From a virus (lineage: Duplodnaviria > Heunggongvirae > Uroviricota > Caudoviricetes): DNA of 41,934 bases. The notes below the pieces were generated by a model. The model was not told the DNA's origin. It worked only from the letters and a program-made list of their open reading frames with translations, and ran no database searches. How positions within the stretch are numbered: the first letter of the stretch is position 1; the number at the start of each line of letters is the position of its first letter. Both the position numbers and the translations under genes were made by a program. The stretch lies in IMG/VR virus record IMGVR_UViG_2541047821_000007; one strand, written 5' to 3'. Positions 3,308-35,361 of the stretch are shown here, one piece after another.

Positions 3308-3883
3308 CTACGGCAGTGCTGGCCATTCAATATCCTGTGCAGTTGACGTATCAACACGGTTCAGCAATACCCGATACTTTTTCCATGCTTCCAGCAACGA
3401 GATTTCTTCCTCCGTTGCAATTTCCAGATCTGCAGCATCCTGAAGCGGCGCAATATGCTCACTGGCTACCTGCATCAGGTTGTTTTTTGTTTCTTCCGCC
3501 TCCCGGATCCGGAACAGTTTTTCTGCTTCCGTATCCTTCACCCAGGCTGTGCCGTTCCACTTCTGAAACTCCCCTTCCGGGGATAACCAGGTGACATTTT
3601 CCGGTAATGGGCCAAGTTCAGAAATAAATAACGCGTCGCCGGAAGCCACGTCATAGACGGTTTTACCCCGATGATCTTCAACGAGATGCCACGATGCCTC
3701 ATCACTGTTGAAAACAGCCACGAAGCCAGCCGGAATATCTGGCGGTGCAATATCGGTACTGTTTGCTGGCAGACCTGTATGAGGCGGAATATATGCGTCA
3801 CCTTCACCAATAAATTCATTAGTTCCTGCCAGCAGATTATAAATTTTTATGGTCCGTGGTTGTTCACTCATTCTGAATGCCAT
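3308..3883 (-). CDS. tfaQ: tail fibre assembly protein (Tfa)
   Basis: 191 aa, [26 protein letters not shown]...; start overlaps stf stop; conserved Tfa C-terminus. Confidence 0.85.
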
Positions 3884-6798
3884 TATGCAAGCCTCACAAT
3901 GTAGTTAAATGCGATGTTTTTGACAGTGTTTTCCGCGTTACCAGCAGCGTTAACGGTGATGGTGTGTCCATGTGAGCCAATCGCAACAGAGTGCGTATGA
4001 GCACCAATACCGACAGTATGTGCGTGAGCACCTGCAGATGCAGCTGTGCCGCTGACACTATGAGTGTGCGCTCCTGCAGCACTTGTATTCACACTGGCCG
4101 CAGACACTACCTTATGTACTGACCCATTTTGTGACCACTGGCTGACTGCTGATGCGCCTGTGACACTATGAGTATGGTTTCCGGCACTTGCGGCTGTACC
4201 GCTCACACTGTGCGTATGCGCCCCGGTGTTATTCGTGGATTTAGTGCCGTAATCAAACGACGATGTGGTTTTCGTCCCCAAATCCGTACTGGATGCACTG
4301 GCGCTGTGGGTGTGCGATTTAATGCCGTCCTGTTCCTGAGACAATACGGCCCGACCACTGGCAGGTTTGCCCTTAATCGTCCAGCCACGCATATCAGGGA
4401 TCACGCCTGACGGATAAGCGGTTGCAAGTTTCGGGTAAGCGGATTTGTCAAAAGTCTGCCCCTGCATCAGGGCATAACCAGACGGAACGGTATCTGATGG
4501 CCACGGGATTGGTGCGCCAGGCGGATAAAACTGCTCTGATGGCGTATAGAGTGAATAAACTGTACCGTCCGTTAACCCTTCCGGCTTATTAGCAGAATAT
4601 GCTGGTGACGTATGAATAGTCACGCTGGCATTACTGGTATAATCCCATTGAATATTTACACCAGTCGCATAATTTCCGATTGCAACGTAAATATCGTAAG
4701 TATCACCAGATGTATTGACCCAGGCAAAATTTGTAAACCCTGTCGATGTGCGCTGCCATAAAGCACCAGTAATCCCCTTCGGATTACCATTACCTGCACG
4801 CAAAACAAGTTCAGATATACCTGCCTGTTGAGGTGACCCCACGTTAAATCCCGCGCCACCAATCAACGTAATTGAAACAACAGAACTCGCCTGTGGCATG
4901 GTTACCGTTGCTAATTTGAACCAACCAGCACCACCGCTGAATGACATTGTTGTTGAGTTAAGCGTACCAATATCTTTCGGCGTCAGTGTTATATCCGCTG
5001 AAAGCGCCTTACCATTCACCTTACGGGCAGAAGGTACCCGACCATTCGCATTATCATTAGCTGCTTTCACTGCTTTCGGTGTCGCGGCAAGCGTTTCAGA
5101 TGCGCTGTTGGTTGCACTACTGAGCTGGACAATTCCTTTTTGTGCTGTCGTAGCGTCCTGAGCAGTATATTTCCCGTTAGCAAGGTCATAGGCTGCCTTT
5201 ACCGACTTTGGCGTTGCCGCCAGCATTTCAGATGTGCTGTTGGTCGCGCTGCTGAGCTGAACTATCCCTTTTTGTGCTGTCGTTGCATCCTGTGCGGTGT
5301 ATTTCCCGTTAGCCAGCTCATACGCGGCCTTAACGGCTTTTGGCGTTGCCGCCAGTGACTCGGAAGTGCTGTTAGTCGCACTGCTGAGCTGTACTATCCC
5401 CTTTTTCGTCGTGCTCGCATCCTCAAGCGCCACGGCGGATGCAATATCCTCTGCCCGTTTTGCCGCTGTCTCGGCGCGCGTTGCCGCGGATTCCGCCGTA
5501 CTTTTGCTCTGAGCTGCCGCCGTCGCACTGCCAGCTGCCTCTGTCGCCTTCGTGGATGCCGTCGTGGCGCTGCCCTTTGCTGCTGACGCCTGTCTGGTCG
5601 CCTCATCTTTTGAAGCAGACGCAGATGATGCCGATGACGCCGCCGAACTGGCGGACGATGCGGCAGCCGTTTTTGAGGATTCTGCGCTGGTTTCCGACGC
5701 TTTCGCGTTCGTCTCGGATGTCTTCGCTGCGGAAGCAGACCTCGCTGCTGCGCTGGCCTGTTCAGTGGCTTCGCCAGCCTTCGTTGTGGCTGTTGAAGCG
5801 GACGATGCGGCGCTTTCTGCCGATTTTCCGGCAGCGGTGGCACTGGCTGAGGCCTGCCCGGCACTTGTTGACGCGGCACTGGCAGACGACGCAGCCGCTG
5901 TTTTTGAGCCTGCCGCAGCTGAGGCGCTCTGTCCCGCTGCCGTCTCAGAAGACCTGGCGTTCGTCTCGGACGTTTTTGCCGCCTTCGCGGAATTTGCTGC
6001 CGCCGTTGCCGAGGAAGCTGCGCTACTGGCGCTCGAGGATGCGTTCGTTTCTGATGATTTTGCCGCCTCTTTTGAAGCCGACGCATCCCGGGCTGAGGTG
6101 GCAGCTTCTGACGCTTTCGTGGTCGCGGTGGATGCAGAAGTGGCGGCTGATTGTTGTGACGCTGCAGCATTCGTTTCTGACGTTTTCGCGGCAGCGGCAC
6201 TGGTAGCTGCCGCGCTTTTTGAGGACTCTGCAGCGGCAGCACTTTTTTCCGCTTCAGTGGCCTTTGTTGATGCCGTTCCTGCGCTGGAAGACGCTGACTG
6301 AGCCGACGAAGCGGCCTGTCCGGCTGACGTGCTGGCTGCACGTGCTGAATCTGCAGCATCAGTCGCATGGGTTGCCGCCTCACGGGCAGATGTGCCGGCA
6401 TCACTGGCTGACTTCTTCGCGGCTGCCGTGTTCTGTGCCACCACGGACGCGTTACGCGCCACCTCTTCCACCATCTGTTCAAAACGGCGCAGTGCCTCCG
6501 GACGGGCATCATCCTCCGTCATGGCACCGAGAAAATCATTCAGCGTACCGGGTTGAGAATCTTCATACACGGTGATGGTCCCGGCATGTGACGGCGGGAA
6601 TCCTTCCACCAACAGAATAACGCTGTACTGCCCGTACTCAACGTCCATGCTGTAACGCCCGGCTTCATCCGGATTTTCTGAGGCCAGCGTGTTCACCACC
6701 ACCGTGGTGCTGTTACGTTTTGCTTTCAGCTGGATTGTGCAGTTCTGTACCGGTTTTCCTGTGCCGTCTTTCAGTACACCTGAAATCTTTACTGCCAT
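3883..6798 (-). CDS. stf: side tail fibre protein (Stf) with Ala/Ser-rich low-complexity stalk, three 44-aa tandem repeats and His-rich C-terminal domain
   Basis: Track ORF begins at GTG 6804; ATG at 6798 preceded by GGGGTG; N-terminus [27 protein letters not shown] is lambda Stf-like; follows lom and precedes tfa. Confidence 0.85.
5037..5410 (-). repeat. three tandem ~132-bp in-frame repeats inside stf
   Basis: Protein repeats [15 protein letters not shown](S/M/T)LAATPK(A/S)[18 protein letters not shown] at residues 468, 512 and 556; matching DNA repeat visible directly. Confidence 0.8.
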
Positions 6799-6807
6799 AT
6801 TCACCCC

Positions 6808-6836
6808 ACAAAAAAGCCCGCCTGAACCGGCGGGCT
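6808..6836 (-). terminator. intrinsic terminator downstream of lom, abutting the stf RBS
   Basis: Minus-strand hairpin AGCCCGCC-GGTTCA-GGCGGGCT followed by TTTTTTGTGG. Confidence 0.6.
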
Positions 6837-6862: not shown

Positions 6863-7462
6863 TCAGAACTTATAACCGACACCCACGATGAAACCGTCAG
6901 TGCGCCAGTCGCCACTGCCGGAGCCTTCATAAGCAATATCAATGGCCACGGATTCGGTCGGGTTAAACTGCACGCCAGCTCCCCACGCCAGAGACGTGTT
7001 GCTGTGGCGACCGTCATCACTTCCGGTCAGCACGTCGTGCGTTTTCCCCTTGTTGTCAGTTACGCGGAGATAATCCCCGGAGAAAGTCGACACACGGCTG
7101 TAAGCCATACCCGCCATCGCATACGCGCTGAACCATTCATTCACGCGCACAGACGGCCCCACCATCACGCTGAACCAGCGGTTACGCACGGAATCTTCAT
7201 GCCAGCGGGTATCGCTGTAACGGGTAAGCTGGCGATTCTTGTCTCCTGCATAGCTGAATGACGTCACCAGCCCCAGTGTGTCCGTAAACTCATAACGGTA
7301 TTTCACGTTAATCCCGTTCAGATCATCACTGCCGGGAACGTTCGTCCGGGCATGAAGATACCCCGCGCTCAGCGTGGACTGATGTTCAGACGCCCATGCA
7401 GGCGCACCGGATACGGCCAGACAAATGGCTGCGGACAAAATGGCGGCATAAAGTTTACGCAT
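6863..7462 (-). CDS. lom: Lom/Ail/OmpX-family outer-membrane beta-barrel protein (moron)
   Basis: 199 aa; signal peptide [24 protein letters not shown]; C-terminal aromatic residue (…GVGYKF); between J and stf as in lambda. Confidence 0.85.
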
Positions 7463-7485: not shown

Positions 7486-7510
7486 TAAAAAAGGCGTCAT
7501 TTCTGACGCC
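7486..7510 (-). terminator. intrinsic terminator between J and lom
   Basis: Minus-strand hairpin GGCGTCA-GAAA-TGACGCC followed by TTTTTTATT, about 20 nt after the J stop. Confidence 0.6.
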
Positions 7511-7528
7511 CGTTCTGGGTTATAAAAT

Positions 7529-10930
<3,402 letters not shown>

Positions 10931-12989: not shown

Positions 12990-13319
12990 CTATGCCACGA
13001 CCTGTTCAAAATCTGCCGTTATGGTTACCCACAACGCCCCCACGCTTGCCGACCATTTACGACAAACCACCCTGATCGGCTTCCAGTCATAAGGTGGCGT
13101 CCACTGAAATGCGCGGACGCCACCGTGCCGTTCCAGAAAGGCTTTTAAAGATGGGTGTTCACATTTACGAACACGTATCGTCACGCTGTAAGTCGACAAC
13201 TGGTTATTCAGTCCCGCCGCACGACGCTGTTCATAACCATCGCCAAGCTTCACTGTCACCACTTTCGGCTCTGATACCACATTCATATCCGGGCGCACTT
13301 TCCAGTGAAACGTCTCCAT
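12990..13319 (-). CDS. M: minor tail protein M
   Basis: 109 aa, lambda M length; start overlaps H stop. Confidence 0.85.
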   Translation of the reverse strand: METFHWKVRPDMNVVSEPKVVTVKLGDGYEQRRAAGLNNQLSTYSVTIRVRKCEHPSLKAFLERHGGVRAFQWTPPYDWKPIRVVCRKWSASVGALWVTITADFEQVVA

Positions 13320-16300
13320 TACCGATATGCTCCACTTAACCGACCACCATCACGGGCCTGCTGTTGCATAAAGTCCGCTGCCGCTTTTTTCCCGAGGTCA
13401 TAAACCGCCTTCAGGGCAGCCGGACCTATCTGCCCGTTCGTGCCATCGTTATTGATCTCGATGTTGTACTGCGGGGAAAACATCGCCATACCTGAACCCC
13501 CAATATCCGCCACAACCCCCAGCTTACCGTCAGCACCACGACGCAATGGCAGAATGGCTTCAGGTCCCGCTTCCCCCATCACACCCGCGCCTTTTGCAAA
13601 AGCAAAAAACGTCGGACGGTTAACCACCGTGCCACTGTAACGACTCAAATCAGCAGACTGATAAATCCCCCCATTGGCATTCAGGGAAAGGCTGCTGAGA
13701 TCAAATCCCAGCACACTGCCAATCCCTTTTATCGATTTCATCATGGTTGCCTGCGCCAGGATTTTCGCCATATCTGACAGCACAGAAGAGGTGAAGGATT
13801 TGAAATTGAGTTTGCCGGTAGTGACAAAAGTTGCCAGGCCATTTCCCATGTTGCTGAAGGCTGACGAGAACACCTGTTCTGCTGTTCCTGCCGTATTATC
13901 TGCATCCACGGTAAAATCCTGAAATGCACGCAGGACTCCGTTTTTCCAGTTACCCTGCACAACTTCAAGCTGTTGCCAGTAACGGCGATTCTCATTCAGT
14001 TGTCGGTTCAGGCTCTCCGTCAGCGCCTGCTCGGCCTTTCTGTAGTCATCCGTGTTATATGTTCCTTTCTGCTCACTATCCCGCCTCAACTGCTCCAGCT
14101 GTTGCTGGTATTTCTGGCGAAGACTCAGTTGTACCTGATATCGCTGCCGCTGCTGATCACCCATACCCACCGTGGCGATATCCAGGTCATGTTGCTGACG
14201 CTGAGCGCGCTCTTCTTCAGCCAGTTGACTGGTCAGCTGAATTGTTTTTTTCTTCAGCTCGTTGAGTGCCGTCTGTTTCTGAAGCTCCTGCTGTTTTACA
14301 TCCAGCAGCGTCAGTGCCTGAATCAGTTCATCTTTACGGGCCAGCACACTCTTTTCATCTGCCGTCAGTTTTTTCCCGTCCAGGTCGCTGATGCGCTGCT
14401 GCAGAGCCAGAAGCTGTTTATGCGCTTCTGTCATCCTTTCCGTGGCAATGCCTGCTGACTGTCTGGCAGCAGCAATCTGTCCTTCCACCTGTGCCTGTTG
14501 CTGACTGTACTGCAGCAATAACCGGGTGGCCTCATCATTACGGGGTTCGCGTGTTTTTTTCTTACCGGATGCCAGGGCTTTCTCGTAACGTTCATTTTCA
14601 CGTTGTATCGCTGCATCCCTGACAGCCTGATCGGCGTACTGCATGGAATTAATACGCGCAATTTCACGCTGATGTCGTGCTGCTTCCGTTTCATTCATCC
14701 GGTTCAGTGCAGCATTTTCAGCATTACGTCGTTTCTGTTGCTCCTGATAATTCCGCTCTGCCTGCTCTTTTGCATCCTGCAAATCCTTCTGGCGTTTTTT
14801 CTCCTGAAGATCGTTAAGACGCTGCTGATCGTATTCAACCTGAGAAGATGATGCCGTCCAGGGGAGTCTTTTCGCCCGCGACACTTTCTCCTGTAAAGCG
14901 GCAATCTGTTCATCCAGCGAGTCTTCACGACCAATATTCATGGCCGCATCCCAGAAACGACTCCACAAATCAGACAGATACTTCAGCGTACTGCCAAGCG
15001 CATTGAGGTTATTATCAATATCCGCAGTACGCCGACCGGTTTCCTCTGCCAGTGCAGACATGGCTATCCGTGCAGCATCACTGGACCGTCCCTGATCCCC
15101 AAGGACACGTATCTGCTCAAGCTGAGTGGCAGTAAGAAAATGCAGCTCATTGTCCAGAGCCTTCGCGGCATTTACAGGATCATCCTTCAGCCGCTTAAAC
15201 TGATTTATGGTATCGCTGACCGACTGGCCAACCGATCGCTCCATCTGTGCGGCAGCTCTCGCCACCATACCGATATCGTTTCCACGAAATGCACCACTCC
15301 CCACCACCTGAGCCAGCGCACCGGCTGCAGCATGTTGCGTGATACCATTCCCGGAAATAGCACGACTGAGCGTCCACAGCTGCCCGGCAGTGACTCCGGC
15401 ATAATGCCCCGTCAGCGACAACTGGCGGTTAAATTCTTCCCCCTCCTTCTGACCGTCATACCAGGCTTTACCCAGACCATAGACGGACGCGGCAATACCG
15501 CCAATAACCCCGCCAAGCATCATGCCTTTCGGTGACATCAGAGTGTCTATCCATCCGGCACGGTTAGCCAGCGTTATCCCGGATCCCCTCAGCGCCCCTA
15601 AATTGCCGCGGGCCAGTTCACCTATCAGAACGCCAATCTCCTGGCGGGCCGCTGCACTTTTCAGACCCAGCGAATGCGTGGCTTTTCCTGCCTGCTCCAT
15701 TTTGCGGATATACACTTCTGCAGCACTGCTTACCCCCAGCTGGGCAGCCTTAGCACGAAGCAACTCAGAAGAAGAAAGATTCTGGCGGGTTGCCTGCTCT
15801 TTAAGCTGACGGATAAACGCCACTTTCTGTCGGGTAGCCTCTTCCTCAGCCTGCGTAAGAACACGGGTTTTCGCCGTAACCTCAGAAATCAGCGCCAGAT
15901 AATCCTGCTGACCAATCCCGCCACTGTTTCTGGCCTGTCGGATCTGCTGCTGAATACGCTGTAATTCCTGCAGCCCCGCACTGGCCTGTTTCACACTGTC
16001 AATCTGACGATAAAACGCGGCAGCCGCTTTATCCTGAGCCTCCGCCAGAGCCATGGCCTGCGCCTGTTCCTCGCGCATTTTCTGGCTCAGTGCCTCCATA
16101 CGCTGGCGGGTTTGCTCCACCTCGCGGGCCATGCGTTCATGAGCCTGTGCGCTCTTCTCCACCGTCTGCGCATGGACGGATGCGGCTGTTGCAGCCGAAG
16201 AAGCCGCCTGCATTGTCTGCCGGGCGGCCTGAGTCTGACGCTCCATAAAACGCTGCATACGGGCAGAAGACCGTTCTGCATCGCTGGCTGCACCATTCAG

Positions 16301-16384
16301 AAGGTTTTTGATACGGGGAATTTCATTTTTAAACTCTGCCGCATCAATCCCCAAATCAATGACCAGGTTGGCTATCTGGTCCAT
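13319..16384 (-). CDS. H: tail tape measure protein H
   Basis: Over 1000 aa, coiled-coil rich, C-terminal NNDGTNGQIGPAALKAVYD motif shared with lambda H; start ambiguous (track first start 16414, internal ATG 16384). Confidence 0.85.
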   Translation of the reverse strand: MDQIANLVIDLGIDAAEFKNEIPRIKNLLNGAASDAERSSARMQRFMERQTQAARQTMQAASSAATAASVHAQTVEKSAQAHERMAREVEQTRQRMEALSQKMREEQAQAMALAEAQDKAAAAFYRQIDSVKQASAGLQELQRIQQQIRQARNSGGIGQQDYLALISEVTAKTRVLTQAEEEATRQKVAFIRQLKEQATRQNLSSSELLRAKAAQLGVSSAAEVYIRKMEQAGKATHSLGLKSAAARQEIGVLIGELARGNLGALRGSGITLANRAGWIDTLMSPKGMMLGGVIGGIAASVYGLGKAWYDGQKEGEEFNRQLSLTGHYAGVTAGQLWTLSRAISGNGITQHAAAGALAQVVGSGAFRGNDIGMVARAAAQMERSVGQSVSDTINQFKRLKDDPVNAAKALDNELHFLTATQLEQIRVLGDQGRSSDAARIAMSALAEETGRRTADIDNNLNALGSTLKYLSDLWSRFWDAAMNIGREDSLDEQIAALQEKVSRAKRLPWTASSSQVEYDQQRLNDLQEKKRQKDLQDAKEQAERNYQEQQKRRNAENAALNRMNETEAARHQREIARINSMQYADQAVRDAAIQRENERYEKALASGKKKTREPRNDEATRLLLQYSQQQAQVEGQIAAARQSAGIATERMTEAHKQLLALQQRISDLDGKKLTADEKSVLARKDELIQALTLLDVKQQELQKQTALNELKKKTIQLTSQLAEEERAQRQQHDLDIATVGMGDQQRQRYQVQLSLRQKYQQQLEQLRRDSEQKGTYNTDDYRKAEQALTESLNRQLNENRRYWQQLEVVQGNWKNGVLRAFQDFTVDADNTAGTAEQVFSSAFSNMGNGLATFVTTGKLNFKSFTSSVLSDMAKILAQATMMKSIKGIGSVLGFDLSSLSLNANGGIYQSADLSRYSGTVVNRPTFFAFAKGAGVMGEAGPEAILPLRRGADGKLGVVADIGGSGMAMFSPQYNIEINNDGTNGQIGPAALKAVYDLGKKAAADFMQQQARDGGRLSGAYR

Positions 16385-16706
16385 AACGCACACCTCCGGA
16401 AATACCTTCCCCAAGATGCATCAGTTCTTCGTCCGTTCGCTCCGGTATCCCGTTCTCTTCCGGTAAAAGGCTGAAATCAGCCACCGCAGCATCACTGCTA
16501 CCGGACACCATTCTCACGATCAATGCCTTCAGCGAGGCAAACTGCGCATCCATCCACACATCACTGAAGCTCTGCATCCGGAAATAATCGCCCCACTCAC
16601 CAAGCTCAGTGGCCGACATTTCCGACAGCATCCGCCGCCAGTCTGCCCGCCGGAACTCCCGGGCAAGCCGCATGACAAACTGCATTTCCCGCGTCAGGAC
16701 TTTTCC
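16356..16706 (-). CDS. T: T portion of the G-T tail assembly chaperone, reached by -1 frameshift from G
   Basis: -1 frame stays open from 16718 through a ~22-nt overlap with the G 3' end (16697..16718); position between G and H as in lambda. Confidence 0.7.
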   Translation of the reverse strand, partial: GKVLTREMQFVMRLAREFRRADWRRMLSEMSATELGEWGDYFRMQSFSDVWMDAQFASLKALIVRMVSGSSDAAVADFSLLPEENGIPERTDEELMHLGEGISGGVRYGPDSQPGH

Positions 16707-17083
16707 GGCGTCAGCACCTCATGCTCCAAATCCCCGGCATTCTCAATGACTCCCATACCGCTCAGCGACAGAACCATCTCCGCCCCCGCTCCCAGGGCAT
16801 CATACGACCATGTTGTAATAACGGATGCGCAAAGCGTCTCAACATCCTGAGACTGTTCCGCATTCCACAGTGAGCGGGAAACCAGCCAGGCATTGATATC
16901 CATCCCCATCCGCAGAAAAGCAATCTGTCGTTCAGCCTCCGGCAGTTCTCCCTCTTCGGCATCAAACTTTGCCGTTCGCTGCTGAACAAACGCCAGATAT
17001 TCAATTCTCTGCAGCCCGGACAGCTCACTGAGCACCACGGACTGCTTTTCATAATTAAACGTGCCCTGTTTCAGAAACATCAT
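16694..17083 (-). CDS. G: tail assembly chaperone G
   Basis: MMFLKQGTFNYEKQSVVLSELSGLQRIEYLAF resembles lambda G N-terminus; GGTGGAG SD before the ATG pair at 17083/17080. Confidence 0.8.
   Translation of the reverse strand: MMFLKQGTFNYEKQSVVLSELSGLQRIEYLAFVQQRTAKFDAEEGELPEAERQIAFLRMGMDINAWLVSRSLWNAEQSQDVETLCASVITTWSYDALGAGAEMVLSLSGMGVIENAGDLEHEVLTPEKS
16700..16707 (-). promoter_or_regulatory. candidate -1 programmed frameshift site for G-T
   Basis: mRNA CCG GAA AAG UCC UGA; an A_AAG lysine slip 2 codons before the G stop enters the T frame. Confidence 0.5.
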
Positions 17084-17096
17084 GTTCTCCACCTGC

Positions 17097-17120
17097 AAAA
17101 AAGCCCCGGATAACCGGGGC
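17097..17120 (-). terminator. terminator-like hairpin in the V-G intergenic region
   Basis: Minus-strand GCCCCGG-TTAT-CCGGGGC followed by TTTTTT, directly before the G RBS. Confidence 0.55.
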
Positions 17121-17140
17121 AAATGATGAGTATCGTCCTG

Positions 17141-17890
17141 TTAACCTGCGGCGCTGACAGCCACCGCAGCCACTGCCACAAAATCGCCGTCAGAAGTCAT
17201 GCCCACAATGCTGACACTGCCCTGCTTCACGCCTTTCACCGTGGCCACAAGCCCGTTCAGGGTCACCGTGGCAGTCTGTGGATCTGTCGAATGCACACTG
17301 ATCGCTTTGTCACTGGCTCCGTCAGGTTTTACTGTAAAGGTCAGCGTGGTGGTTGCTCCCACTTTTACACTGGCAGATGCCGGTGCCACCGTCAGCCCGG
17401 TAACGCTCACTGTTTCAGTGCCTTCCTCTGCCAGATACGGACGCCCCACACCGCTGATTTTCACTGTGCGGGTCATCACGTCTTTTGAGGCAATGGTTTT
17501 ACCCAGTGAGCTCAGCCAGCCACGGAAAACATCAACAGTGCCGTTGGGATATTTGATACGAAACGCGCAGACTTCACCGGAGTCGAACAACTGAACCAGT
17601 TTTTTCTGCCCGCTGTCACCCGGACGCCAGGCCAGCGTCGCCGAAGTATCACCGACGGATTTCTGCCCCTGGGTTGTCGTTTTCCAGTCTGCATCTTCAT
17701 CATCGAGATAAGTGTCATCTTCTGCATCAGCGGTCATTTCGCCAGGTTGCAGATCCTTCACCATCGCAAGACGCAGCCAGTCAGTGTCCGATAAAGGGTT
17801 CGCAAACGCATCGCCCTTGCCGGTGTACATCCAGAACGTCGTTCCCGCACCTTTCGTTTTTGCCAGTGGATTTGGTGTGGTCATTGCCAC
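17141..17890 (-). CDS. V: major tail protein V with C-terminal Ig-like domain
   Basis: 249 aa; KGAGTTFWMYTGKGDAFANPLSD and YLDDEDADW match the lambda V pattern. Confidence 0.9.
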   Translation of the reverse strand: MAMTTPNPLAKTKGAGTTFWMYTGKGDAFANPLSDTDWLRLAMVKDLQPGEMTADAEDDTYLDDEDADWKTTTQGQKSVGDTSATLAWRPGDSGQKKLVQLFDSGEVCAFRIKYPNGTVDVFRGWLSSLGKTIASKDVMTRTVKISGVGRPYLAEEGTETVSVTGLTVAPASASVKVGATTTLTFTVKPDGASDKAISVHSTDPQTATVTLNGLVATVKGVKQGSVSIVGMTSDGDFVAVAAVAVSAAG

Positions 17891-19475: not shown

Positions 19476-19561
19476 AACTGTCTCCGCACAGCCCCGTTCA
19501 GGGGCTGATTTCAGGTACAAAAAAAGCCCTTACGGGCCATCAGAGTTGTTGTCTGCGACGT

Positions 19562-21520
19562 TTACGCCGTACATTTCACCAGACCGCGGTGATCAACTGG
19601 CGCGACACCGGCGTCAATACGCACTTTCGTTGTCACGCCATCCACACTGAAGCCCTCCATCTGATCAATATATGGCGTATCCACACCGTTGAGATAAGCC
19701 ACTTCAATCGTATCGGAGCCTTTTGACGCAGCCAGGTAGAAGGTGGTCTGGCTGTTATCATCAAGACGAGGCTCTGCAATAACGGTCGCAAAATCTTTCA
19801 CCGGGTTAATAATACCGGCGTTAATGTCAGCCCCCTTGACACTTGAGGAGCGAATGACCTGGTTAGCAACAGACTCCATCGCCGTCGGTACCAGTACGAA
19901 CGCAGGACGAATATTCAGATGACGCTCCCCCTCTTTCTGAACGCGCATCAACTGGCGGGCTTTATCCAGCGATGCCACGTCCATTGCAGCGCTCTCCAGT
20001 ACGTTTGCATGTTTCGCTTTATCGAACAGACTTACATTATCTGTGGAGATTTTCGGGTTAGACGTCAGAATGGCATAAACCAGATCGGCAATAGTGGATT
20101 TCGCCGCACGGCCCAGTTTCATCGGGACATCGGTCAGCATATTCAGATCATCATTGATAATGGCCTGACGGGTGATACTGAACAGCTCGCCATAGGTCGC
20201 CAGTGCAATAGTGGCCTGTTTATCTCCGGTGGTGACGTATTTATATTCCGCCCCTTCACGCACCTGACGTAGAGCACTGAAGCCCCCCATACCCACACGA
20301 TGGGCAATTTTAAAATCAGACAACTGACCTTTCCGCGTCCACTGTTCATAGGTTTCAGGGGCATCTTCCCAGCCCTGCAGAATGGCTTTGTTCGCAACAT
20401 CCAGCAGAATATTACCGAAGTCAGACGTACTGTGTGTGAACGCCGCACCGACCATCTGCATCGGGTTATAACCGGAAACCCCAATACCCCGTTCAGTTAG
20501 TGACATACGGGCATATTCACGCAGGGTCATCCCGTTGTAGACATTATCACGTTCGGTTTTTTCAAATCCGGCACGCGCCATCAGCGCCTGGCGAATCCCG
20601 TCCCCCACAAAATTACCGTTACCGGCATAAATATGAGCCGGGGTATTTTTATTGGATGGCGTGGACTCGCGCCCCATCTCGTTCAACAGCTTTTCACGGG
20701 CCTGCTCCAGCGAACATTCAGGATCGGCAAGACACTGGGCCTGCAGCGTCTGATAACGCCCGCCAAACATGGCAAACAGATCATTAATACCGTTTACACG
20801 CGCTTTTTGCTCTGCCAGTACCTGCGCACGGATACTGTTTTCATCCACCACGGGTGCTGCTGCCTGCACTGGCGTCCGGGAGGCTGCAGGTTCATCATCC
20901 TGTACGCGTGGAGCACTGTTGCGTGGCGGAGTAATCATGTTTCGAATGGATTCCGGCATCTTTTTAAATTCCTCTGTACGTTTTGACTGAATACATGCCA
21001 TTGCCTTAACGGCTGGTGTCACCTGATCAGCAAATCCCTGTGCCAGACATTCGGCACCGGACATCCAGGTCTCATCCGCCAGCATGGCAGCAATTTCATC
21101 GGTGGTTTTCCCGGTTTTCTGTGCATAAGCGGGTAACAGAACCGCCTCAACTTTATCGAGCAGGTCGGCATAGGTGCGCATGTCCTCCGCATCACCGCCC
21201 GTAAAGCCAAATGGTTTATGAATCATCATGAAGGAGTTTTCCGGCATAATGACCGGGTTTCCCACCATCGCAATGACCGACGCCATTGACGCCGCCACAC
21301 CGTCGACATAAACGGTAATGGACGCACCATGTGTTTTCAGTGCATTAAAAATGGCGATGCCTTCAAAGACATCGCCACCCGGTGAATTAATATGGAGATT
21401 AATGTGGGTGATATCGCCCAGTGCATTCAGATCACTGATAAACTGCTTCGCTGTAACACCCCAGAAACCAATCTCGTCATAAATATAAATATCCGCGTCA
21501 CTCTGGTGACCTGCCTGCAT
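19562..21520 (-). CDS. prohead protease (ClpP-like) / scaffold / major capsid fusion protein
   Basis: Trimmed to ATG 21520 (MQAGHQSDADIYIYDEIGFWG) so it no longer overlaps portal; N-terminal ClpP-type fold motifs, C-terminal ~300 aa capsid-like. Confidence 0.75.
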   Translation of the reverse strand: MQAGHQSDADIYIYDEIGFWGVTAKQFISDLNALGDITHINLHINSPGGDVFEGIAIFNALKTHGASITVYVDGVAASMASVIAMVGNPVIMPENSFMMIHKPFGFTGGDAEDMRTYADLLDKVEAVLLPAYAQKTGKTTDEIAAMLADETWMSGAECLAQGFADQVTPAVKAMACIQSKRTEEFKKMPESIRNMITPPRNSAPRVQDDEPAASRTPVQAAAPVVDENSIRAQVLAEQKARVNGINDLFAMFGGRYQTLQAQCLADPECSLEQAREKLLNEMGRESTPSNKNTPAHIYAGNGNFVGDGIRQALMARAGFEKTERDNVYNGMTLREYARMSLTERGIGVSGYNPMQMVGAAFTHSTSDFGNILLDVANKAILQGWEDAPETYEQWTRKGQLSDFKIAHRVGMGGFSALRQVREGAEYKYVTTGDKQATIALATYGELFSITRQAIINDDLNMLTDVPMKLGRAAKSTIADLVYAILTSNPKISTDNVSLFDKAKHANVLESAAMDVASLDKARQLMRVQKEGERHLNIRPAFVLVPTAMESVANQVIRSSSVKGADINAGIINPVKDFATVIAEPRLDDNSQTTFYLAASKGSDTIEVAYLNGVDTPYIDQMEGFSVDGVTTKVRIDAGVAPVDHRGLVKCTA

Positions 21521-28054: not shown

Positions 28055-28325
28055 GATGTTACCGTAGTATGTGAGTATCCATCGAATAGATACCAAGCAA
28101 AAAAGCTCCCGAAGGAGCCTTCATTTTCACTTTTTTAAATCCAACGACAGACGGCTGGCATTTAAGTATTGTGAAATATTATCAAATGTAATCATCATTG
28201 ATTTACAAAAGATACATTTTGCCCCGAAAGGATTCATGTCAGAAACATCAAAAGATGATGTTCTATACTGGGAACCATGACAACACGGGCATCTAAAGTG
28301 AATATGGTTTGTAATATTGTCTACC

Positions 28326-28538
28326 TCAAAGCGCCACTACATGAACAGCGGCAGGACCTTTAGGTCCGTTCTCAATACCAAATTCAACTTCCTGATTCTC
28401 AGTTAATGTTTTGAAATCGTTGCTCTGAATTGCTGAGAAATGGACAAACACATCTTTGCTGCCATCTTTCGGCGTGATGAAACCAAAACCTTTTTCAGGG
28501 TTAAACCATTTCACTAAACCAGTCATTTTGTTAGACAT
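28326..28538 (-). CDS. cspI: cold-shock protein CspI
   Basis: 70 aa; KGFGFI and VFVHF RNA-binding motifs. Confidence 0.9.
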
Positions 28539-28901
28539 AATTATTACCTTTTGAAGAAATTAGCCCTTGGGCAGAATGGTCCGAAAAAAAATATCAGAGA
28601 GAAAAACCAACAAGGAAATCTCAAGAGGTACAAATAATAAAATTATAACAATGACTGCTTCAGATAAATTTGTAACAAACCAGAACACCATTAACGCATG
28701 ATTAACCACCCATAGCAAGGATTACTTTTGTAAAGAAAAACACAGCAATGAAAGAATAGCTTTATTTATTAATAATAACGTGTCATTCTGATTAAGACCT
28801 TTTATCTTACCCTTAAGATTTCAGGAATTTTGGCTCATGGAAGAGTCCTTTTTATTTAAATTTTACATTCCGCGATGTAAATGTTCCGATTTAATATTAC
28901 C

Positions 28902-30930: not shown

Positions 30931-31210
30931 AGATTGTGGTGCTTTTTGTGGGAGTCATCCACTTACGCACTTTGTTTTGCCATGCCAGCAGTTAGCTTCT
31001 GCTGTAAAACTATTCATGCAGCAAACCTGCACTTCACCACAATGGTTAGCATACTTTTCCTGATTAAGATTTTGCCAAATATGCTAGCCATTGTTTCATG
31101 TATTGGACCTCCTTACTTTTTATTAAAGAGATCCAATATTCACTACTCTGTCCGTATCTCTACTCAGGCATCAGCCTTCTTCGTTATCGTATACAGACGA
31201 GCGATGAATT

Positions 31211-31426
31211 TTAATCAGTAATGATGACATTTGCTGCTGCAGGACCTTTAGCACCACTCTCTATAGAGAAGGTAACCTTTTGACCTTCAAATAAGGTTCG
31301 ATAATTATCATTCTGAATCGCAGAAAAATGCACAAACACATCTTTACTACCATCAACAGGAGAAATAAAGCCGAAACCTTTATCAGCGTTAAACCATTTT
31401 ACTAAACCAGTCATTTTATTTGACAT
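31211..31426 (-). CDS. cspB: cold-shock protein CspB
   Basis: 71 aa; [23 protein letters not shown]... Confidence 0.9.
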
Positions 31427-31726
31427 TCTACATTCCTTAACTTGAGCCTTTCGGCATAAATGGTTTGCATAACAGAAACGACTTCGTACTTAATTGGAGA
31501 GACTCAAAGAAGGAATAAGTGAATAACACCTGAAATGAGAACTGCTTTAGTAAACTACTTCGTATATCGTCTGTTCTTCAAACCGACGCAATCATTAACG
31601 CATAGTTGAACATATGAAGCAATGTTTATTTTAGACATCCAGCCATCTTCAACCCCATCAAAAAACTATAGCTTTCTTCAGGAACGTGTGTATAGTGCGC
31701 CAAGTTATCAGTATTAAGGAATTTTT

Positions 31727-32360: not shown

Positions 32361-33113
32361 TTATCTCGTCACCTTCCTCAATTGCGCTTCCGCGTATGCT
32401 TCTTCCTGCCAGCACTTTGTTACCAGTTTATCAATGACGTCCGCATACCCCTTATACCACTGATAATCGGTCAGGTCTGGTACCAGCTTCTGGACATGAC
32501 GTCGTGCCAGCGTGGTCGGTAAACGACTAAATCGGTTTCCATTACAACGCCCACAAATCTTATATACCGGTACGCCATGAAACCGGGTTCTTTTTTCATC
32601 CAGAACAATCCCTTTACCCTTACACCCTCTGCACGCTGTGCTGACTTCGCCCTTACCATGGCAATGCTGACATAGTTCCTTCACCCATTCTTCCTTGATT
32701 ACAGATTCCCCGCGTCTGTAGTGTTTCACCACTTCGCGCAATACATTATAAAATCCCGTACCTGAACAATGCTCACAGCGAGCCTTACTTGCCGCAGACC
32801 TGGAGTAATCAGCAAAGGCAAAATTCACAAGGTAAGGAATAATCTGTAACCGGATTTCTTCACTCAATTTGTTCAATGTCGGGTTATCCAGTGCCATCGC
32901 GTAATTTAGCAGGCCTTCAATCGCAAACTGAGGGTCCTGAACACCAACTTTTGCCAGAAATAAGGCCAACCCAAGTGGTGCTTTCGACTGCACCATCCCC
33001 TGCGCTGCCATTACATCCGTAATTGTTAAACAACCGGTGCCTGTCGCTGGAGCGTCATCGCTCAATTTTGGAGATTTTGGGGAGTAATATTTTGGTAAGG
33101 CTTCAAGGTTCAT
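32361..33113 (-). CDS. quuQ: late-gene antiterminator Q (phage 21/82 type)
   Basis: 250 aa; Cys/His clusters (CEHCSGTG, CQHCHGKGE, CRGCKGKG, CGRCNG). Confidence 0.8.
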   Translation of the reverse strand: MNLEALPKYYSPKSPKLSDDAPATGTGCLTITDVMAAQGMVQSKAPLGLALFLAKVGVQDPQFAIEGLLNYAMALDNPTLNKLSEEIRLQIIPYLVNFAFADYSRSAASKARCEHCSGTGFYNVLREVVKHYRRGESVIKEEWVKELCQHCHGKGEVSTACRGCKGKGIVLDEKRTRFHGVPVYKICGRCNGNRFSRLPTTLARRHVQKLVPDLTDYQWYKGYADVIDKLVTKCWQEEAYAEAQLRKVTR

Positions 33114-34990: not shown

Positions 34991-35146
34991 TTACTCCTCA
35001 GGTTCGTAAGCTGTGAAGACAGCGACCTCCGTCTGGCCGGTTCGGATTCGTACCTCGCAGAGGTCTTTCCTCGTTACCAGTGCCGTCACTATGACGGTTA
35101 AACAGATGACGATCAGGGCGATTAACATCGCCTTTTGCTGCTTCAT
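34991..35146 (-). CDS. hokD: Hok-family type I toxin
   Basis: 51 aa: MKQQKAMLIALIVICLTVIVTALVTRKDLCEVRIRTGQTEVAVFTAYEPEE; GGAG 9 nt upstream. Confidence 0.85.
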   Translation of the reverse strand: MKQQKAMLIALIVICLTVIVTALVTRKDLCEVRIRTGQTEVAVFTAYEPEE

Positions 35147-35361
35147 AGCCTGCTTCTCCTTGCCTTTCGGCTCGTAAGAGGCTAACCTACATGTGTCTAG
35201 CATGAAATTGGCCTCAGATTAATGTTAAGCGTCTTGCAGGACGCGTAATGTTAACTGGGGCTTTTCTCTATCTGCCTTTGGTGTTCATGCCCGAGGCAGA
35301 TAGCCTCAAGCACCCGCAGCCATTCTACTTAACTACCGTTACCTCGCCAATATGAAATCAG

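Follow-up and report, generated by a model that had tools for sequence, protein, structure and literature searches.

Intra-operon terminators in the late operons of lambdoid phages were discussed by Casjens and co-authors in their paper on phage L, in which such elements are described as common and their roles as 'not known'. Two options were considered there, namely that the hairpins bring about partial termination or that they stop transcription proceeding without antitermination. The hairpins of phage L and the P22-like phages, and those of lambda (at D–E, E–FI and I–J and after lom), are GC-rich tetraloop structures, with or without a U-tract, that lie inside one Q-antiterminated operon, as does the element described here. 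They occupy junctions other than that between the major tail gene V and the tail assembly chaperone gene G, and lambda has none after V.

The intercistronic hairpins of malEFG and puf are 3' stabilizers that set stoichiometry. It has been published that leaky terminators balance the expression of phage genes, as in the case of the weak terminators of LUZ7 and of T-phi, which follows the capsid gene of T7, and that terminators raise the abundance of the mRNA upstream of them. In T7, LUZ7, malEFG and puf the hairpin comes after that gene of a polycistronic unit whose product is the more abundant, and message is more plentiful upstream than downstream, as might be envisaged for V and G. The effect in these systems, exerted via partial termination and/or exonuclease protection, is experimentally supported, whereas at V–G it is a prediction from sequence. 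The same order of a major tail gene, a hairpin with a T-rich tail and the tail chaperone genes is also found in Cluster O mycobacteriophages (Corndog gene 49). These are, however, unrelated siphophages that differ in host and sequence, have a stem of 12 bp and are not known to use Q-type antitermination.

The DNA that we analysed, hereafter the window, comprises 41,934 nucleotides (IMG/VR record IMGVR_UViG_2541047821_000007). Its tail region is 97–99.7% identical to those of phages Ayreon, cdtI and mEp460 and their relatives, and the remainder matches a Qin-like lambdoid prophage. The V–G element is not new; it is of an ordinary, well-known kind and has already been annotated in a near-identical phage. 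The GenBank entry for mEp460 (JQ182728) carries a 'rho-independent terminator' at 8751–8774, where the major tail gene gives way to the G homologue, a label that represents a sequence prediction and not an experiment. The locus is the same, the flanking 1.7 kb are 97.9% identical and the U6 tract is shared; the mEp460 stem (GCCCCGG/UCGGGGC) differs by one G–U wobble, which is nothing of substance. Another 'rho-independent terminator' is placed by the same entry at 9389–9406, inside the T coding region, suggesting that an automatic predictor lies behind such features. Of 5,426 complete E. coli genomes, 1,824 contain the 121 nt that span the junction, and the V–G gap of O157:H7 strain TT12A is identical to that of the window. 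Taken alone the V–G element is of little importance, and its class is routinely noted in phage genome papers.

The V–G junction

The features that make up the junction are as follows.

17141–17890, minus strand: gene V, major tail tube protein (PF16461, E 6e-67, and a C-terminal Big_2 domain), with the stop codon TAA at 17143–17141
17084–17140, minus strand: V–G intergenic gap, 57 nt to the first ATG of G or 60 nt to the second (17080)
17103–17120, minus strand: hairpin with 5' arm GCCCCGG (17120–17114), loop UUAU (17113–17110) and 3' arm CCGGGGC (17109–17103)
17097–17102, minus strand: U6 tract abutting the 3' side of the stem (5–7 U in close relatives)
17087–17090, minus strand: GGAG, the Shine–Dalgarno sequence of G, 6 nt past the U-tract; in extended form AGGUGGAG, 17094–17087
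16694–17083, minus strand: gene G, tail assembly chaperone (PF06894), with ATG at 17083–17081 and a second ATG at 17080–17078

A sequence-only reading of the window had drawn attention to a 7-bp GC stem and a tract of six U residues immediately before the ribosome-binding site of G, in a V–G gap of 57 bp. This description is confirmed, including the length of the gap (17140–17084). The stem is perfect, with all seven of its pairs G–C, it begins 20 nt past the V stop codon, and the six U residues that follow are separated from GGAG by GCAGGU. Read on the minus strand, the junction is TAA-CAGGACGAUACUCAUCAUUU-GCCCCGG-UUAU-CCGGGGC-UUUUUU-GCAGGUGGAGAAC-AUGAUG. RefSeq starts gpG of the identical O157:H7 copy at the second ATG, giving the 60-nt gap, and the V start annotated in mEp460 corresponds to the ATG at 17884.

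The hairpin has a predicted energy of −15.0 kcal/mol alone and of −16.2 kcal/mol as the centroid of a 76-nt fold, a centroid in which it is the only structure. The stem is GC-rich and, like the loop, falls within the limits for an intrinsic terminator (5–14 bp and 3–8 nt, respectively), and the U-rich tract abuts it on the sense strand past the stop codon of V. On the plus strand the same stem is present and the T-tract is absent, such that the element is unidirectional; a plus-strand or bidirectional terminator is thereby discounted. Agreement with the GC(U)7RU terminator rule for bubble-edge dinucleotides, under which GC at −2/−1 can work (preprint 10.64898/2026.05.29.728758), is partial: the stem ends in GC as it should, but the U-run is of six residues rather than seven and is followed by GC, not R-U. 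By its sequence, then, the V–G module is of the canonical intrinsic-terminator type and sits at the 3' end of V, on the sense strand, inside a lambdoid late operon; termination itself is a prediction.

Operon context

Four further features bear on how the junction would be transcribed and translated.

32361–33113, minus strand: Q-type late antiterminator gene, ydfT-like (PF03589, E 8e-55; RefSeq annotation of an identical prophage)
to 16356, minus strand: T frame, overlapping G (PF06223)
16706–16700, minus strand: probable G–T −1 slip site, G GAA AAG, leading into the T frame (from sequence and translation)
13319–16414, minus strand: gene H, tape measure (PF06791, PF09718), the first low-copy tail gene downstream

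The gene labels V, G, G-T and H, previously assigned from the sequence, are right according to the Pfam matches. The slip site, for which the lambda counterpart is G GGA AAG, lies 4 nt ahead of the G stop codon and the T frame is open from there; in the mEp460 entry T is annotated as a separate ATG-initiated gene.

The Q gene is located about 15 kb upstream of the V–G gap and shares the minus strand with all of the lysis, head and tail genes. The V–G element is thus downstream of Q in one co-directional block, which is the layout of a Q-antiterminated late operon. Lambdoid Q proteins allow late transcription to pass intrinsic terminators, a point also made in the phage L paper, and so, with a Q gene upstream on the same strand, the default expectation is that Q-modified polymerase would read through the V–G site. 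The roles proposed in the sequence-only reading, attenuation after V or read-through only by Q-modified polymerase, are plausible from the arrangement of the sequence; they are the same as those published for phage L and would not be peculiar to this junction.

Motif and RNA family searches

A strict motif was defined as a stem of 7 bp or more, with six or more GC pairs, and six or more T among the 8 nt that follow it; both strands were counted. The 41.9-kb window has two such sites, in the V–G gap and after lom, both on the late strand. The expectation is 0.08 per dinucleotide-shuffled window, and 6% of shuffles have any. A consensus scan ranked the V–G site as the top terminator-like site in 19 kb. 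The fold of the 76-nt V–G segment is unremarkable relative to shuffled sequences (z = −0.70) because any GC-rich segment folds.

When up to three mismatches were allowed, no other copy of the element was found in the window. This uniqueness excludes a REP or other dispersed palindromic repeat. A riboswitch or attenuator-type switch was also considered; by reading, the flanks hold no second copy of either arm, and no competing structure was found. Rfam gave no family at the V–G site at either gathering or permissive thresholds, the sole hit being a chance one at E=0.7.

The Rfam result bears on the idea that the hairpin and U-tract form the 3' end of an Hfq-binding small RNA derived from the 3' end of V. 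A GC hairpin followed by poly-U is the standard Hfq-binding 3' module, and phage terminators do yield RNAs of this kind, for example lambda PreS at tL2a and StxS at tR'. Nevertheless, we regard this origin as highly improbable. In addition to the lack of an Rfam match, a promoter-like site sought just upstream was not found, no literature report of such an RNA was found, and the relatives that have the hairpin only are without the U-tail needed for Hfq. A known RNA, sRNA-17 of E. coli K1, does come from an mEp460-like prophage, but it maps to an intergenic region of more than 1 kb and not to the V–G gap.

Survey of V–G junctions

Homologues of V from GTDB genomes and IMG/VR provided 203 V–G junctions with 77 distinct gap sequences. 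A first scan of IMG/VR had yielded only copies that are 98–100% identical, and these served for the analysis of polymorphism only. A V gene 100% identical to that of the window occurs in a contig assigned to a 'Bacillota bacterium' MAG, and a tail module of Enterobacter type in a 'Geobacteraceae' MAG contig (both GTDB contigs of the L003/L016 set); in addition, 'Campylobacter phage CJLB-4' (MW057783.1) matches the lambda V region with an identity equal to that of the lambda records. In all three cases the probable explanation is mis-binning or contamination with DNA of enterobacterial phages.

The length of the gap is bimodal, with 24 distinct gaps of 3–23 nt and 53 of at least 34 nt. The short gaps contain the Shine–Dalgarno sequence only; lambda, with a hairpin-less gap of 15 nt, is of this type. 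A GC-rich hairpin with an energy of −7 to −16.5 kcal/mol is present in 52 of the 53 long gaps. The stems fall into four unrelated families.

Stem family 1 (that of the window): GCCCCG(G)/(C)CGGGGC
Stem family 2: (C)GGGGC/GCCCC(G), including the extended form GGCGGGGC
Stem family 3: AGCCACAC/GUGUGGCU
Stem family 4: GGCUCC/GGAGCC

The stem of the window's type is also found in a Citrobacter relative in which V is 74% identical and the flanks cannot be aligned. A hairpin with at least five GC pairs occurs within the 50 nt past the V stop codon at 50 of the 77 junctions, compared with a frequency of 6.6% for the average 50-nt bin of these loci. This measure of strict-hairpin density replaced an earlier post-stop control (−9 kcal/mol in 48-nt segments), which was non-discriminating in that 332 of 560 other ORFs passed it.

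Throughout the hairpin-bearing relatives the loops are hypervariable, with many GNRA and UUCG tetraloops among them, and neither the arms nor the GGAG downstream show variation. The hairpin always ends 12–20 nt before the G start, just ahead of the GGAG. A formal covariation test on the GGGGC-type family gave almost no signal, since the arms are invariant. Overall the support from covariation is thin, with arms that do not vary within a family and a compensatory change only at the outermost pair. The structural argument is therefore based on the variable loops and the unrelated stem families, not on covariation. Among 85 close relatives of the window's version of the junction, variation is confined to the loop and the two loop-proximal pairs, and the core GCCCC/GGGGC is always kept. 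Polymorphisms of the closing pair in the window's family include a change of G to A at nine loci, which breaks the pair on the sense strand; others preserve a G–U pair.

On the V protein tree, hairpin gain and loss require at least five changes, a figure that would suit a neutral relic, either a terminator that has outlasted the moron to which it belonged or a scar left by recombination where two modules meet. The element is dispensable, as lambda demonstrates, and in the window terminator-like hairpins flank the lom moron. We consider this origin quite unlikely all the same, since four unrelated stems recur at the one junction, a hairpin occupies all but one of the distinct long gaps, the arms remain invariant between the window type and L010 despite diverged loops and flanks, and none of the surveyed junctions has an inserted gene. 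The V–G hairpin is clearly real and selected, and the survey shows that a stable hairpin recurs at this junction in tail modules of the lambda type, in which it is facultative.

The U-tract behaves differently. It is strong (at least five T in eight) in 23 of the 53 distinct long gaps and weak or absent (three or fewer in eight) in 26, as in GCCCCG-CCCACGG and GCCCCG-UCCCGG, in which the hairpin has no usable U-tract; in some, the former among them, no tract is present. On these sequences the constant part of a long V–G gap is the hairpin, not the U-tract. This observation bears on the possibility of a purely transcriptional device, one that stops polymerase lacking Q and/or terminates a fixed fraction of transcripts and has no part in mRNA stability. 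Such a device would account for the textbook terminator anatomy with U6, the retention of U5–U7 in 85 of 85 close relatives and the U4–U6 tracts of three other junction families, and with a Q gene upstream it matches the options of Casjens and co-authors. However, among the distinct junctions with a hairpin, about half have kept it without a usable U-tract, and the close relatives are too similar in sequence for their U-runs to prove selection. A device acting on transcription alone is possible but, in our estimation, somewhat doubtful.

Intercistronic 3' stabilizers are characterized by a stable hairpin that closes the cistron with the higher expression and is conserved whether or not a U-tract follows, a description that the long V–G gaps fit. 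The frequent absence of the U-tract in relatives is no less suggestive of a post-transcriptional role, for example 3'-end protection, than of termination. In the extreme, the hairpin might be a modular post-transcriptional 'punctuation' cassette with a conserved job that does not involve termination, the U-tract being optional, and with either a ribosome-gated mode of action or a role as a processing barrier. We think this reading unlikely. If ribosome-gated, a stem between the V stop codon and GGAG could fix the amount of G made per V translation event; a processing barrier could give rise to discrete V-ending mRNAs or to an Hfq-binding 3' fragment.

Translation was also considered in its own right. 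The hairpin and its flanks might govern the access of ribosomes to the G ribosome-binding site, either uncoupling G from the heavily translated V or exposing the G Shine–Dalgarno sequence only when a ribosome terminating on V melts the structure. The constant placement of the hairpin just upstream of the invariant GGAG would suit such a gate. In the GGGGC-type junctions the stem starts 4–5 nt past the V stop codon, and the predicted accessibility of the Shine–Dalgarno sequence is 0.04–0.27, compared with 0.26–0.67 where there is no hairpin. The minimum-energy fold of the window, moreover, pairs UCAUCAUUU with AGGUGGAG. That extra helix contributes no more than about 3 kcal/mol, however, includes three G–U pairs and is lost in the L005-type variant; the Shine–Dalgarno sequence of the window is predicted to be about half accessible (0.45), and every class of junction provides G with its own strong ribosome-binding site. 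Sequestration of the G Shine–Dalgarno sequence by the hairpin flanks was set aside because in the window type it is weak and lacks conservation, and a gate or insulator of this sort is very unlikely to be the function of the V–G hairpin. Many relatives have hairpin-only junctions (L145, L187, L047 and L024, with gaps of 34–38 nt) that read (C)GGGGC-GNRA/UUCG-GCCCC(G), then a C/U-rich spacer and GGAG. On the modelled folds, a hairpin-only junction of the GGGGC type may be a translational coupling device.

Proposed role

The reading that we favour, with confidence that is evenly balanced, is that the V–G hairpin is an intra-operon step-down element, which would shield mRNA ending at V, stop unmodified polymerase and allow some termination to leak through. 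During lytic growth Q-modified RNA polymerase would mostly pass the V–G site, so that the hairpin would become part of the long late mRNA. Once that mRNA is cut further downstream, the hairpin would block 3'-to-5' exonucleases, such that message ending at V, together with that upstream, would outlast that for G-T-H-M-L-K-I-J. The U6 tract would cause a minority of Q-modified complexes to terminate and would halt at V–G any polymerase without Q, such as that engaged in spurious transcription in a lysogen. The net result would be to raise the message for V, a protein of which each tail needs about 190 copies, above that for the chaperones and the low-copy tail proteins, adding to differences in translation efficiency. 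Each half of this reading has published support in other systems, in the leaky phage terminators and in the effect of terminators on upstream mRNA cited above. Since the hairpin is kept even without a U-tract, at least part of the function must reside in the RNA structure alone.

There are bounds on what a step-down element would contribute. Lambda functions with its short V–G gap, from which it follows that the element would tune expression and is not essential. Together with lambda, about one third of the distinct junctions are hairpin-less, with gaps of 3–23 nt, and the element is therefore not needed for the V:G/GT/H ratio.

Between the same two genes there is a natural series consisting of junctions with no hairpin, with the hairpin only and with the hairpin plus U-tract. 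It is found in related and partly cultivable phages, namely mEp460, Ayreon, cdtI and lambda. A series at a single junction could make the role of intra-operon terminators in late operons directly testable. Furthermore, roughly one in three complete E. coli genomes carries the element, such that its role could be settled from transcriptomes already available.

Other hairpins in the window and in lambda

Further terminator-like hairpins occur in the late region of the window.

19519–19538, minus strand: hairpin GGCCC-GUAA-GGGCU with a U-run, immediately past the ClpP-protease/major-capsid fusion gene, which has its stop codon at 19562; a rho-independent terminator in the mEp460 annotation
7492–7511, minus strand: terminator-like hairpin with a T-rich tail (7/8 T), after gene J (motif scan)
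6815–6836, minus strand: terminator-like hairpin with U5, after lom (motif scan)

In lambda the late-operon hairpins follow D (with U7), E (with a UUCG loop), L, I and lom. The GC-rich tetraloop hairpins after D, E and I are located as follows.

Lambda 6097–6118: after D
Lambda 7163–7180: after E
Lambda 15460–15485: after I

Terminator-like hairpins within Q-driven late operons are thus the rule, and they often, though not always, follow the most abundant structural genes. The I and L proteins of lambda are not abundant, and D and E are required in equal numbers. As I and L are each followed by a hairpin and another separates D from E, a rule by which a hairpin after an abundant gene marks a step-down in expression is only partly true.

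The gap after the ClpP-protease/capsid fusion gene, of about 87 nt, contains two tandem hairpins (19489–19538, minus strand), the second of which, CAGCCCC-UGAAC-GGGGCUG, abuts the GGAG of the cement-protein gene. The hairpins at 7492–7511 and 6815–6836 bracket lom (Ail/Lom), which lies between J and the side tail fibre gene, in the classic layout of a moron; the lambda equivalent of the post-lom hairpin is at 19612–19633.

Elsewhere in the window, Rfam hits above gathering thresholds were obtained at four places, all typical of a Qin-like prophage.

3342–3540, minus strand: IS009 RNA
28299–28684 and 31195–31587, minus strand: two cspA-type thermoregulator leaders (cspI and cspB regions)
35141–35315, minus strand: sok antitoxin RNA (hokD/sokD)
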